From a virus (lineage: Duplodnaviria; Heunggongvirae; Uroviricota; Caudoviricetes), in the IMG/VR virus record IMGVR_UViG_2671181134_000002, positions 1-6,437 of that record: a stretch of DNA of 6,437 bases; one strand, 5' to 3'. The notes beneath the pieces were generated by a model. It had not been told where the DNA came from. It made no database searches and saw nothing but the letters and a program-made list of their open reading frames with translations. The position numbers and the translations under genes were made by a program. Shown here one piece after another: positions 1 through 4,785 of the stretch (positions are counted from its first letter, which is position 1; every line of letters begins with the position of its first letter).

Positions 1-518
1 ACGAACTGGTTGTTAAAGGGATAAATAATTACCCGGATAAGATTACTGTTACTGTGGCACTGGAAACGGGTGGGTATACGTCACTGTTGTTGCCAAATGT
101 GGTGATTGATCTTGATCGTGTTGAAGGTGCCCCGCTGGAGTTTTACGAAGCTGAGGCGAAAAAGAAGGCGAAGCAGTTTTTCATGGATATTTCTGCCGGG
201 TTATGTGAAGGGGATGAGCAGTCGCCGGAAAAGCGCCCCATAATTTTAGAGGCGCAGGATGTGTTGATAACCTACAGAGGAAAACTACCGGGAATAATTA
301 CTGGTTCTCTGAAGACGCCACCGACGGCATTGCGGTCAGAAAACGATGATATTGAATCACGCATTGAAAAACTGGAGTGCTATATCGCTGAATTGAAAAA
401 AAGCACCCCAACAAAAAATGAGGTGCTTGCAGCAGATGAAATGAAAGAAACTATTCTTGATCGCGCGGCGCATCTAAGCTGCGCTTCACTGTTGAAAGAG
501 CATCTTCAGCAGCCTTGA
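1..518 (+). CDS. Hypothetical protein, 3' portion only (ORF open to the window start; N-terminus lies upstream)
   Basis: Frame 3 is open from position 3 with no stop until TGA at 516-518, so the track's Met at 54 is probably internal. Hydrophilic, charged, helix-rich translation with no motif I recognise. Region is visibly more AT-rich than the terminase genes. Confidence 0.5.
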   Translation, partial: ELVVKGINNYPDKITVTVALETGGYTSLLLPNVVIDLDRVEGAPLEFYEAEAKKKAKQFFMDISAGLCEGDEQSPEKRPIILEAQDVLITYRGKLPGIITGSLKTPPTALRSENDDIESRIEKLECYIAELKKSTPTKNEVLAADEMKETILDRAAHLSCASLLKEHLQQP

Positions 519-690
519 GGAATCTTTTATCATCACGAGCAACTGTCTTTGGTATTTCTTTAATTAGATGTTCCATTTCGGCGATCAGGTAATCTGACAC
601 AGCGTTATTTTTACTTAGTGCATCCATTGCTTTGATTATCTTTGCGAGGCAGCCATCTCGCATTGTTGAGTTTACGCCAGTGCCCACCAC
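451..690 (-). CDS. Hypothetical small protein (70-79 aa), doubtful; convergent with and overlapping the 3' end of the 1-518 ORF
   Basis: Track ORF begins with a GTG at 690; first ATG is at 663. Translation is amphipathic and helix-like, but I find no Shine-Dalgarno before either start and it overlaps the opposite-strand ORF by 68 nt. Confidence 0.25.
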   Translation of the reverse strand: MVGTGVNSTMRDGCLAKIIKAMDALSKNNAVSDYLIAEMEHLIKEIPKTVARDDKRFLKAAEDALSTVKRSLDAPRDQE

Positions 691-751
691 TGGCGGGCTG
701 AAGACTTAACATATCCAGGGATTCGGAACCGATAAATCCTGATAAATATCC

Positions 752-4074: not shown

Positions 4075-4785
4075 GTGCTGACAACGCAAAAACGAAAATT
4101 TGCGCTGGCGCTCATGTCCGGGAAAAACAAAACAGCGTCAGCCATTGCCGCCGGTTATTCGGCGAAGACCGCCAGGGTTAAAGGCTCACAGCTGGCAAAA
4201 GATCCGGAGGTGCTTGCGTTTATAGCCCGTAAACAATGCGAGACGGTGGAGGTGGATGAGGTTCCTGTTTACCGGCAGAAAAAATCAGAGCAGGAGGATA
4301 AACCCCGTCGCCGTGAGGCGGCTGCAATACCACAGCCGGACGAAAACAATCCGGAGGTGCTTGCGTTTATAGCCCGTAAACAATGCGAGACGGTGGAGGT
4401 GGATGAGGTTCCTGTTTACCGGCAGAAAAAATCAGAGCAGGAGGATAAACCCCGTCGCCGTGAGGCGGCTGCAATACCACAGCCGGACGAAAACAATCCG
4501 GAGATGCCACCGTCCGCGGTGATGTCTCCTGGTATTGAATATATGGAGGATGGTCTTCCCGATCCGGTGAAAGCCATGGGGCGGATCCTGGTGGAAAACC
4601 TCTGCATTGATCCGAAACTGGCACTGGATGCGGCCTGGCGTCTGGCGCAGTTCACGCACCATAAAAAAGGGGATACCGGGAAAAAATCGGCAAAAGGTGA
4701 TGCCGCGAAAAAAGCGGCTAACCGTTTTGCTGTGCCACCGCCACCCCGACTGGTGGTGAATAACGATAATGAGGGAAACGGATGA
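4075..4785 (+). CDS. terS: Terminase small subunit (P27 / Terminase_2-type)
   Basis: GTG start preceded by GGGAGGAGG. N-terminus KRKFALALMSGKNKTASAIAAGYSAKTARVKGSQLAKDPEV carries the AGYSAKTA helix-turn-helix signature of this family. Stop overlaps the terL start as ATGA (4782-4785). Contains an internal 49-aa perfect duplication. Confidence 0.85.
   Translation: MLTTQKRKFALALMSGKNKTASAIAAGYSAKTARVKGSQLAKDPEVLAFIARKQCETVEVDEVPVYRQKKSEQEDKPRRREAAAIPQPDENNPEVLAFIARKQCETVEVDEVPVYRQKKSEQEDKPRRREAAAIPQPDENNPEMPPSAVMSPGIEYMEDGLPDPVKAMGRILVENLCIDPKLALDAAWRLAQFTHHKKGDTGKKSAKGDAAKKAANRFAVPPPPRLVVNNDNEGNG
4204..4497 (+). repeat. Perfect 147-bp direct tandem duplication (2 copies) inside terS
   Basis: 4204-4350 and 4351-4497 are identical base for base by my alignment. 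In frame, duplicating PEVLAFIARKQCETVEVDEVPVYRQKKSEQEDKPRRREAAAIPQPDENN. Junctions carry the 8-bp microhomology ATCCGGAG at 4202-4209, 4349-4356 and 4496-4503. Confidence 0.9.

Follow-up and report, generated by a model that had tools for sequence, protein, structure and literature searches.

The Pfam family DUF1327 includes YdfR of Escherichia coli K-12 (b1555), a protein of 103 aa encoded in the Qin cryptic prophage between essQ (class II holin) and rrrQ (lysozyme), with the ydfR stop overlapping the rrrQ start. Residues 1-72 of K-12 YdfR were found to interact with Rne(1-597) by two-hybrid assay and to purify together with Rne(1-598), pulling down RNA as well, and the full-length protein was reported to interact with only one of the Rne constructs (PMC13232886). 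According to the same study, overproduction of YdfR changed few transcripts and left growth unaffected, and hardly any reads came from ydfR in standard growth (PMC13232886). The link to RNase E comes from this one study, of a homologue 45% identical to the protein analyzed here. Comparable in its mode of action only, and bearing no sequence or fold relationship to YdfR, is Srd of phage T4, a small phage protein which, according to that report, binds RNase E in its N-terminal half and alters the decay of host RNA (PMC13232886). Srd is the product of an early gene of a virulent phage, and its effect has been demonstrated; for YdfR, binding alone has been reported. Longer members of the family are PhiR5_1 (211 aa), gp05 of the Stx2-converting phage 86 (268 aa) and proteins of 296-329 aa from Stx/lambdoid phages.

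The window analyzed here, that is, the whole stretch of 6,437 nt taken from IMG/VR virus record IMGVR_UViG_2671181134_000002, carries within positions 1-751 a near-complete YdfR-family gene on the + strand followed by what is left of an independent moron on the reverse strand, now dead, and we consider this identity and anatomy practically certain. The + ORF is read in frame 3, open from base 3 to a TGA at 516-518 (172 codons), and is cut by the left edge of the window. When completed from relatives it encodes 176 aa, with the true ATG 13 nt upstream of the window; 172 of the 176 codons lie inside and 4 are absent, so that the gene is represented at 1-518 from codon 5 (partial) to codon 176 plus the stop. 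Since the ATG is just 13 nt outside the window, the ORF is not a big fragment of a longer gene. The first-pass annotation had described it as the last 170-plus residues of a protein that could not be placed; the length agrees with the 172 codons, and the protein can be placed in the YdfR/DUF1327 family on the basis of its translation, Pfam, PHROG and annotated relatives. The match to Pfam PF07041 scored 131.1 bits against a gathering cut-off of 25 (E 1.7e-38; aa 1-112 on profile positions 1-92 of 93), and phrog_2091, a YdfR subfamily of 176-183 aa, was matched over its full length (E 1.4e-83; aa 1-171 on positions 1-181 of 183). At the DNA level the window shares 99.9% identity with annotated E. 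coli prophages, among which the copy in NZ_CP053731 is labelled YdfR family protein. Homologues number in the hundreds, and the ORF is a real gene.

The encoded protein is soluble and acidic (pI 5.0), and a 19-residue Kyte-Doolittle hydropathy scan (maximum 19-mer 1.08) detected no transmembrane segment, in which respect it does not resemble a holin. Its N-terminal domain (aa 1-74; positions 1-209) is made up of three beta-strands followed by one helix in an AF2 model (pLDDT about 86 for model residues 1-68), and is the sole part common to the window protein, K-12 YdfR and stand-alone homologues of 72-76 aa; the identity to K-12 YdfR (45%) is limited to these residues, the stretch to which RNase E binding was ascribed, past which the K-12 protein is wholly divergent. 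A linker (aa 75-113; 210-326), predicted to be disordered (pLDDT <40), lies inside the Pfam DUF1327 match and is kept among Escherichia members, whereas K-12 YdfR lacks it, as well as the helical extension and the reverse-strand cassette that follow in the window. The C-terminal extension (aa 114-176; 327-518) consists of two predicted helices (pLDDT 60-70) and is the stump of a larger second module present in the forms of 211-329 aa. These share the architecture of the window protein up to residue 176 (91% identity in the 211-aa form), as well as the holin and endolysin flanks, and run on into the further module, whereas the window protein stops where the reverse-strand cassette begins; homology to the longer forms ends exactly at the + stop codon. 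The extension module also occurs as the stand-alone proteins P0188 and P0243. An origin of the extension by accidental read-through of the reverse gene (gene A, below) in antisense was considered and rejected, as the peptide segment is conserved in the distant P0243, which is encoded at a locus (L089) with a homologue of phage 86 gp06 instead of gene A.

NCBIfam and PADLOC gave no usable matches for the + protein, and a profile search over 1.84 billion representative proteins retrieved only 102 clusters, none tied to a family of known function. Sequence profile searches of the PDB returned coiled-coil matches to the tail only. With the AF2 model as query, Foldseek reached a best E of 0.33 in the PDB, all matches being small designed or ribosomal folds, and a best E of 0.012 with TM <0.35 in BFVD, without an informative fold; overall, the PDB, BFVD and representative-protein searches produced no structural or sequence relative with a known function. 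Pfam detected nothing besides DUF1327 in the long forms and in the stand-alone extension proteins, and the AF2 model of a 296-aa long form (pLDDT 41) was too poor for use.

Gene order was read from the loci surveyed in IMG/VR, phages and E. coli, in 81 of which the endolysin was located, and runs holin, 3-4 nt spacer, DUF1327, variable interval, endolysin, the same placement as that of ydfR in K-12. The first-pass annotation had put the segment where a holin would be expected; the holin, an S21-type class II protein, was instead found directly upstream, just outside the window, ending 3 nt before the + gene in the 99.9%-identical E. coli prophages. Downstream, positions 752-1285 of the + strand encode an R21-type lysozyme (endolysin) with a hydrophobic N-terminal segment, 91-98% identical across the 81 loci. 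The + gene is an accessory late gene between an S21-type holin and an R21-type endolysin in a lambdoid, Stx-phage-like E. coli prophage. No promoter-like sites were found on the + strand of the window or upstream of the + gene in locus L003, and a gene on the late strand with no such site nearby should be silent in the lysogen, although an internal promoter could escape any scan of this kind.

According to the explanation that we favor, the + gene would be transcribed solely in lytic growth from the late promoter, as judged from its position alone, and would be translated by coupling to the holin. The beta3-alpha domain (aa 1-74) would dock on host RNase E, at its catalytic N-terminal half, this docking would alter RNA decay late in infection, and the helical tail would be an appendage that is dispensable or degenerating. 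Late lytic expression is likely; the RNase E mechanism, extrapolated from sequence relatedness, is put forward tentatively and may well not hold. Weighting identity and anatomy, late expression and the RNase E mechanism together, we give this explanation about an even chance.

The arrangement of translation signals bears on a different proposal, in which the soluble protein, co-produced with the holin, would behave like an antiholin (cf. P1 LydB, T4 RIII) and target the cytoplasmic tail of the holin or the supply of endolysin, or in which the RNA of the gene would control endolysin translation, thereby modulating the timing of lysis. The gene always lies 3-4 nt after the holin, and a GGAG inside the holin 3' end precedes its ATG by 7-8 nt (read in loci L001 and L087), while in phages without DUF1327 a GGAG stands at a like distance before the endolysin ATG. 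In vB_EcoS_P27, which lacks DUF1327, 4 nt separate the lysozyme start from a 98.6%-identical holin, and the sequence GGGGAGAG in the holin 3' end, which precedes the DUF1327 ATG, serves the lysozyme there in identical form. The + gene takes over the coupled ribosome-binding site of the endolysin, and at the displaced endolysin start (752) no Shine-Dalgarno sequence was recognisable. Moreover, DUF1327 codons 64-68 are complementary to the endolysin start codon over 9-13 nt in all 81 loci, a pairing also predicted in folds. A further point in favor is that deletion of K-12 ydfR is found in the raw hit lists of a screen for envelope leakiness (supplement to PMC3879167), an entry which could however reflect a polar effect on the downstream lysozyme. 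Several observations argue in the opposite direction. Covariation was sought for the helix 180-192 / 744-756 and none was found, and in the one diverged allele examined (L088) a central mismatch in this pairing is uncompensated. The protein has no membrane segment, overproduction of K-12 YdfR gave no growth phenotype (PMC13232886), the gene is missing from three quarters of the phage records that have a related holin, and remote stand-alone DUF1327 domains are located in tail-gene clusters, outside lysis cassettes. A role in lysis timing is therefore considered rather improbable.

The distribution of the gene is patchy among otherwise syntenic phages. Of 426 phage records in which a related class II holin was found, 94 had holin and DUF1327 together, so that the gene does not belong to a core of lambdoid late genes shared by all relatives; the records without DUF1327 include many with a 96-99% identical holin, and P27 as well as 933W and other Stx2a-type records are among them, the match of the latter extending over the holin only. 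Where the gene is present, the distance from the DUF1327 core to the endolysin varies from 56 to 1281 nt in 12 length classes, and the C-terminus of the protein is a mosaic, with forms of 114 to 329 aa and the window copy truncated by the reverse-strand cassette. The core was detected in 2982 of 5426 complete E. coli genomes (about 55%) and the window's particular cassette in 45 of the 5426. The family is thus very common, and its function can only be inferred.

This variability supports the accessory nature of the segment, the part of the "accessory cargo" claim in the first-pass annotation that was borne out. As to whether the cargo would benefit the lysogen, as a horizontally acquired defence, superinfection-exclusion or virulence function, low GC and variable presence would fit, as would the fast, arms-race-like evolution of the protein and the occurrence of small reverse-strand genes with their own terminator, typical of morons. 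Against this, PADLOC and NCBIfam gave no match indicating any such function, the + gene is on the late strand and no promoter-like site was detected around it, K-12 ydfR is essentially unexpressed in standard growth (PMC13232886), and gene A, the sole element oriented for expression in the lysogen, is here devoid of start codon and ribosome-binding site. A benefit to the lysogen is accordingly regarded as very unlikely, and the label "unidentified cargo" is better replaced by that of a YdfR/DUF1327 accessory late gene plus a decayed moron, not to be listed among candidate loci for defence or virulence. Although accessory and evolving fast, the segment is ordinary, and its family is a known one.

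The dN/dS of the DUF1327 core was 0.72-0.96, compared with 0.05-0.10 for its holin and endolysin neighbours at the same loci, a difference that could reflect relaxed constraint rather than adaptation. Values of about 0.7-1, the pseudogene call of PGAP on this copy of the gene ("incomplete; missing C-terminus") and the loss of the second module would all suit a decaying, C-terminally truncated pseudogene, with the whole of 1-751 as junk; in the same sense, the extension differs from that of L024 by 2 synonymous to 6 nonsynonymous changes and is frameshifted in L031, and the adjoining reverse gene is demonstrably dead. Nevertheless, the core ORF is undisrupted in all of the 45 distinct alleles that align without gaps, despite a nucleotide divergence of about 7-8%, its presence in more than half of the E. 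coli genomes speaks against a relic, and constraint is uneven within it: the motif DRxEGxxLEFYEAEA (codons 41-55) accumulated 5 nonsynonymous to 10 synonymous changes, and codons 1-40, the fast-evolving sheet, 51 nonsynonymous to 14 synonymous. In addition, the strong purifying selection on the flanking holin and endolysin implies that the host prophages are not decaying generally. That the gene is a non-functional relic is thus unlikely. The contrast in dN/dS between the core and its neighbours offers a handle on the RNase E-binding report in a phage context, as do the minimal 74-aa domain as the only conserved unit and the takeover of the endolysin ribosome-binding site.

The convergent ORF on the reverse strand (451-663; 70 aa from the ATG at 663, 79 aa from a GTG at 690) overlaps the + ORF at 451-518, that is, by the 68 nt given in the first-pass annotation. 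It matches phrog_18136 (E 5.4e-41; aa 10-79 on profile positions 18-87 of 87) and is for that reason not a chance ORF; it derives from a genuine gene, here called gene A, but is not an intact partner gene. In intact relatives, gene A encodes 87-91 aa and has its own Shine-Dalgarno sequence (AGGA) and its own putative terminator inside the + gene. Alignment to E. coli G1/2 (L003) located a deletion scar at 636-644, the single kept copy of a 9-bp direct repeat, TTATCTTTG; in relatives there are two copies of TTATCTTTG, spaced by 100 bp, and between them lie the start codon, Shine-Dalgarno sequence and first 28 codons of gene A. Deletion of 100 bp between the 9-bp repeats left the window copy without the ATG, the AGGA and these 28 codons, with 63 native codons headed by 7 codons read from former upstream DNA. 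On these sequence grounds gene A in the window is a dead, 5'-truncated and decayed remnant. The gene is intact in 29 genomes and deleted in about 16 with an identical breakpoint; PGAP calls a gene in the intact copies and none in the deleted ones. Where the reverse ORF does not overlap the + gene, 7 synonymous to 4 nonsynonymous substitutions were counted in the reverse frame, compared with 2 synonymous to 8 nonsynonymous, plus stop codons, in the + frame, a pattern like that of a coding sequence on the reverse strand. PADLOC returned nothing for the reverse ORF beyond a 12.6-bit match (E 0.014).

At 391-428, within the + coding sequence and 23 nt downstream of the reverse ORF stop, the reverse strand carries a hairpin with a 10-bp stem followed by TTTTTTT (-15.5 kcal/mol, z -3.8, with 0 of 200 shuffles as stable), a putative intrinsic (Rho-independent) terminator of the reverse-strand unit. 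No sigma-70 consensus was present in the 125 nt upstream of gene A in an intact relative. Gene A is like the lambda-type morons bor and lom, small AT-rich units set into the late region, but differs from them in having no detectable consensus promoter and in being truncated in the window.

When the short form of 114 aa was set against the long forms, the left boundary of the cassette fell at a CCACCG microhomology (318-323), with its partner CCACCA at 684-689; the CCACCG site was assigned to a longer imperfect direct repeat, 300-316 / 689-705 (D4). A hairpin on the + strand at 675-695, with an 8-bp stem (CGCCAGTG-CCCAC-CACTGGCG; -20.2 kcal/mol with flanks, z -3.9), is conserved in three different reverse-gene cassettes, in each at the right end. 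Some of the long forms also have a convergent small reverse gene next to them, and these genes (phrog_2572, phage 86 gp06) are unrelated to gene A. Homology among the convergent reverse genes was in general rejected, since BLASTP and hhalign were not significant (gene A vs the L090 type: probability 4.6%, P 0.009); the only related ones were phage 86 gp06 and its counterpart in L089 (37% identity). A broader and highly speculative conjecture, to which we assign little probability, would have the DUF1327 domain of about 74 aa as a fast-diversifying, phage-encoded ligand of the RNase E catalytic domain, a small mobile module, frequently accompanied by a convergent small gene that can be swapped, which enters late operons (holin/endolysin in Escherichia phages, tail genes M/L in distant prophages) and whose coding RNA gates the displaced endolysin through a long-range helix over its start codon.

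Finally, the low GC content noted for the first 750 bp was confirmed (0.446 over 1-751 vs 0.527 for the whole window). An Rfam search and a tRNA scan gave no matches. In 300-nt windows GC was 0.43-0.46 across 1-750 compared with 0.54-0.61 across the packaging genes (terS 0.543, terL 0.577), and by feature it was 0.472 in the DUF1327 core, 0.424 in the extension and 0.393 in the reverse remnant. Comparable AT-rich patches occur at 1286-1776 (GC 0.462) and 2421-2987 (GC 0.478), and low GC is therefore not peculiar to 1-751.

The window represents the late region of a lambdoid, Stx-phage-like E. coli prophage. Its bases 1-760 match several complete E. coli chromosomes at 99.9% identity, and in one of these (NZ_CP053731, locus L001) the annotated gene order is Q antiterminator, SASA/NanS-type esterase, DUF1378, DUF826, class II holin, YdfR family protein, lysozyme, Rz-type lysis protein, Rha-family regulator, YlcI/YnfO, HNH endonuclease and small terminase subunit; the window ORFs are the same genes. 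Segment 1-751 was AT-rich (GC 0.446 vs. 0.527 in the whole window and 0.54-0.58 in the terminase genes), as the first-pass annotation had stated, and its description of two overlapping ORFs was likewise accurate (measured here as 172 codons on the + strand and 70 aa from ATG on the - strand). Its view of the + strand product as a fragment of a protein that could not be placed did not hold. The ORF, which runs uninterrupted from base 3 to a stop codon at 516-518, is nearly whole: L001 has the start ATG 13 nt ahead of the window, giving a 176-aa protein composed of MNKQY plus the window's reading frame. This protein matched Pfam DUF1327 (PF07041; E 1.7e-38, 131 bits for a cut-off of 25, aa 1-112) and, over its full length, phrog_2091 (E 1.4e-83); matches to phrog_1085 (296-aa profile, E 6.3e-68) and phrog_406 (114-aa profile, E 1.4e-60) covered only the first 153 and 113 residues, respectively. 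A search of 5.8 billion proteins found 281 relatives, usually labelled "YdfR family protein" among the 120 listed, where all source names given were Escherichia or Shigella. As these were the only named sources and a profile search of 1.84 billion representatives returned only 102 clusters, the DUF1327 family is narrow and catalogued. The finding is real but ordinary: a truncated, mosaic version of a gene from a known and annotated prophage family, with a decayed reverse-strand moron behind it. A defence or virulence role, raised at first as one possibility, found no supporting evidence (no usable PADLOC or NCBIfam match). The protein is acidic (pI 5.0), and its AF2 model starts with a confidently predicted domain of three strands and a helix (residues 1-68, pLDDT about 86), continues through a disordered linker (pLDDT below 40) and ends in a tail of two helices (pLDDT 60-70), with no informative match among solved structures by fold or sequence.

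Alignment of the family's length classes (114, 148, 162, 176, 182-183, 194, 211, 241, 268, 296, 305, 325 and 329 aa) showed a core conserved to residue 113, beyond which the C-termini are wholly different. Given that K-12 YdfR (103 aa, Qin prophage, between essQ and rrrQ) has only residues 1-74 in common with the window protein (45% identity), and that remote stand-alone homologues measure just 72-76 aa, a domain of about 74 aa is the unit conserved throughout. The C-terminal extension is also found on its own, in P0188 (209 aa) and P0243 (184 aa), so the long forms are fusions. The peptide LKKST.QKN.V.A.D..KETI.DRA..LSCA of the window's tail (aa 114-176) is kept in P0243, indicating that the tail is ancestral coding sequence and ruling out accidental read-through. 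The 211-aa and 329-aa forms are homologous to the window precisely as far as the stop codon of the + gene (about 515/516); beyond it comes sequence particular to the reverse-strand cassette that precedes the endolysin, and the 176-aa protein is therefore a C-terminally truncated derivative, which probably explains why PGAP labels this gene copy a pseudogene with "missing C-terminus".

The reverse-strand ORF of this cassette (451-690; 79 aa from GTG, 70 aa from the ATG at 663) matched phrog_18136 at profile positions 18-87 only (E 5e-41). Alignment with E. coli G1/2 (locus L003) showed that exactly 100 bp, located between two copies of TTATCTTTG, are absent from the window, where one copy is left (636-644). 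With this segment, a 91-aa gene (WP_021565043), here called gene A, lost its ATG, its AGGA Shine-Dalgarno sequence and 28 codons from its 5' end; the tiny gene A family has 30 clusters, all named ones from E. coli. Gene A is intact in 29 complete genomes, where PGAP annotates a hypothetical protein, and about 16 complete genomes carry the identical deletion, those copies being left unannotated. Allele substitutions in the non-overlapping part were 7 synonymous to 4 nonsynonymous in the gene A frame vs. 2 to 8, with stop codons, in the + frame; a canonical hairpin with U tract lies 23 nt past the gene A stop on its own strand; and one locus (L031) kept the reverse gene with the + extension frameshifted. 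These three observations indicate that intact gene A is an independent and genuine unit. A search upstream of it for a consensus promoter found none. Relatives with intact gene A truly have the 68-nt convergent overlap, since its final 22 codons, together with its terminator, sit antisense to the tail of the + gene. In the window the ATG at 663 is without a ribosome-binding site, and the reverse ORF is best regarded as a dead remnant, which may still be transcribed.

The holin, which the first-pass annotation had expected in this segment, ends 3 nt upstream of the + gene; it has 71 aa and, in our own reading of the sequence, closely resembles the phage 21 pinholin. The core-bearing loci examined, taken from IMG/VR, from phage records and from E. 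coli genomes, are a biased set because they were selected through the core; their order is holin, 3-4 nt spacer, DUF1327, variable interval and endolysin. The endolysin was located in 81 of them (91-98% identical), and the interval from codon 113 to it fell into 12 length classes between 56 and 1281 nt, the variability among syntenic prophages that had been proposed for checking. In the unbiased check, a search of the phage collection with holin plus core, both were present in 94 of 426 phage records with a related holin, and 933W and other Stx2a-type records matched over the holin only. In phages lacking DUF1327 the lysozyme start lies 4 nt past the holin and relies on GGAGAG of the holin 3' end (in vB_EcoS_P27, after a 98.6%-identical holin). 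In both arrangements GGGGAGAG in the holin 3' end is the upstream ribosome-binding site, which, together with the 94/426 count, identifies DUF1327 as an accessory insertion that took over the endolysin's coupled start. In a comparison of window 725-751 with locus L087 (2000-2023), it is likewise DUF1327 in the window, and not the lysozyme, that uses the GGAGAG site, and no recognisable Shine-Dalgarno sequence precedes the endolysin in the window (…GATAAATCCTGATAAATATCC ATG). The core is common in complete E. coli genomes (2982/5426) and the window's cassette rare (45/5426). The initial reading of the segment as variable accessory DNA stands. Microhomologies flank the cassette (CCACCG 318-323, CCACCA 684-689) within a 17-nt imperfect repeat, and the short 114-aa form looks like precise cassette loss.

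Several further features were observed in this region. Three different reverse-gene cassettes (those of the window type, of PhiR5_1 and of phage 86) all keep a stable hairpin at their right-hand end, located in the window at 675-695 (stem of 8 bp; -20 kcal/mol including flanks, z -3.9); no T tract follows it on either strand, and it may be a recombination or processing site. Locus L082 (IMG/VR 2872174743_000006) has a 167-aa reverse ORF between core and endolysin, resembling the IS1 transposase InsB on inspection by eye. Through a perfect 13-nt inverted repeat (180-192, TTCATGGATATTT; 744-756, AAATATCCATGAA), codons 64-68 of DUF1327 pair with the start codon of the endolysin (ATG at 752), and the repeat's 9-nt core (TTCATGGAT / ATCCATGAA) occurs in 81/81 related loci. 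The helix, which could gate endolysin translation, was predicted for the short form by both MFE and centroid folding and for the window by centroid folding; no covariation was found among related loci, and the diverged allele L088 has an uncompensated central mismatch.

Selection was evaluated as the ratio of mean dN to mean dS over 56 distinct loci, with L001 as reference, and by counting changes on a neighbour-joining tree, both giving the same picture. The ratio was 0.07 for the holin (10 nonsynonymous to 68 synonymous changes, rate ratio 0.05), 0.96 for the DUF1327 core (105 to 44, 0.72) and 0.10 for the endolysin (122 to 371, 0.10). Core codons 41-55 (DRxEGxxLEFYEAEA) had 5 nonsynonymous to 10 synonymous changes and codons 1-40 had 51 to 14, in counts that are small per region and inflated by recombination under parsimony; a few sites, such as codon 37, changed repeatedly. 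The core's ratio may reflect relaxed constraint. The reading frame was open in all 45 distinct core alleles compared (those aligning without gaps), and we take the core to be a functional domain in which one motif is conserved and the surface diversifies rapidly. Mean dS was 0.089 in the core vs. 0.253 in the holin and 0.284 in the endolysin (L001, L005 and 54 other loci), and nonsynonymous divergence of the core was 3-5 times above that of both neighbours, a pattern that suggests more recent spread of the gene among phages with rapid protein change.

The remote stand-alone domains lie in lambda-like tail clusters, between minor tail M-like and L-like genes or after a tail I-like gene (L090 1636-2160, L093 93-616, L094 446-992, L095 511-966, L091 4001-4219). 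In 4 of 5 distinct contexts of this kind, a convergent ORF of 70-99 aa follows 11-28 nt past the minimal DUF1327 gene. After the long forms in lysis cassettes this position is taken by gene A, an unrelated 86-aa gene (PhiR5_1) or a 104-aa gene (phage 86), the last with a 37%-identical counterpart adjoining a stand-alone extension protein in L089. These convergent genes belong to at least five unrelated families, and may represent the swappable partner of a two-gene module or simply an insertion hot spot.

Experimental data on the family concern K-12 YdfR only. A two-hybrid screen that used the RNase E paralogue RNase G (Rng) as bait picked up its first 72 residues three times; YdfR interacted with Rne(1-597), co-purified with Rne(1-598) and brought down RNA; its overproduction altered few transcripts and left growth unaffected; and ydfR was almost silent under standard conditions (PMC13232886). 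T4 Srd was the authors' comparison for such binders of the RNase E N-terminal half (PMC13232886). Because the part shared with the window protein is exactly the 74-aa domain, the most likely mechanism, put forward tentatively, is that the window protein would be expressed late, bind RNase E and alter RNA decay during lytic growth. The main functional rival, a role in lysis timing, would fit the gene's position in the lysis cassette and the displaced endolysin start, yet appears improbable given the tail-cluster location of the distant minimal genes, the absence of the gene from most phages with a related holin, and a 176-aa protein in which no membrane segment was found. A screen for envelope leakiness (PMC3879167 supplement) has a K-12 ydfR deletion in its raw lists, an entry that may be explained by polarity on the lysozyme gene downstream.

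Elsewhere in the window, a second AT-rich insert (1286-1776, GC 0.46) separates endolysin and Rz and resembles a further moron slot within the lysis cassette; it has a strong + strand terminator-like hairpin at its beginning (1376-1408, 15 pairs) and a 71-aa ORF (1409-1624) with a hydrophobic C-terminal segment. In the Rha/Ant-like gene (2421-2987), 3.9 perfect copies of the 9-bp unit AGGCTGGAC (2901-2935) encode LDRLDRLDRLE close to the C-terminus. The small terminase gene (4075-4785) contains a 147-bp tandem duplication (4202-4507, 2.1 copies, 99% identical), which doubles 49 amino acids of the subunit (…PEVLAFIARKQCETVEVDEVPVYRQKKSEQEDKPRRREAAAIPQPDENN…), and a second repeat at 4665-4718 with two copies of a 27-bp unit.
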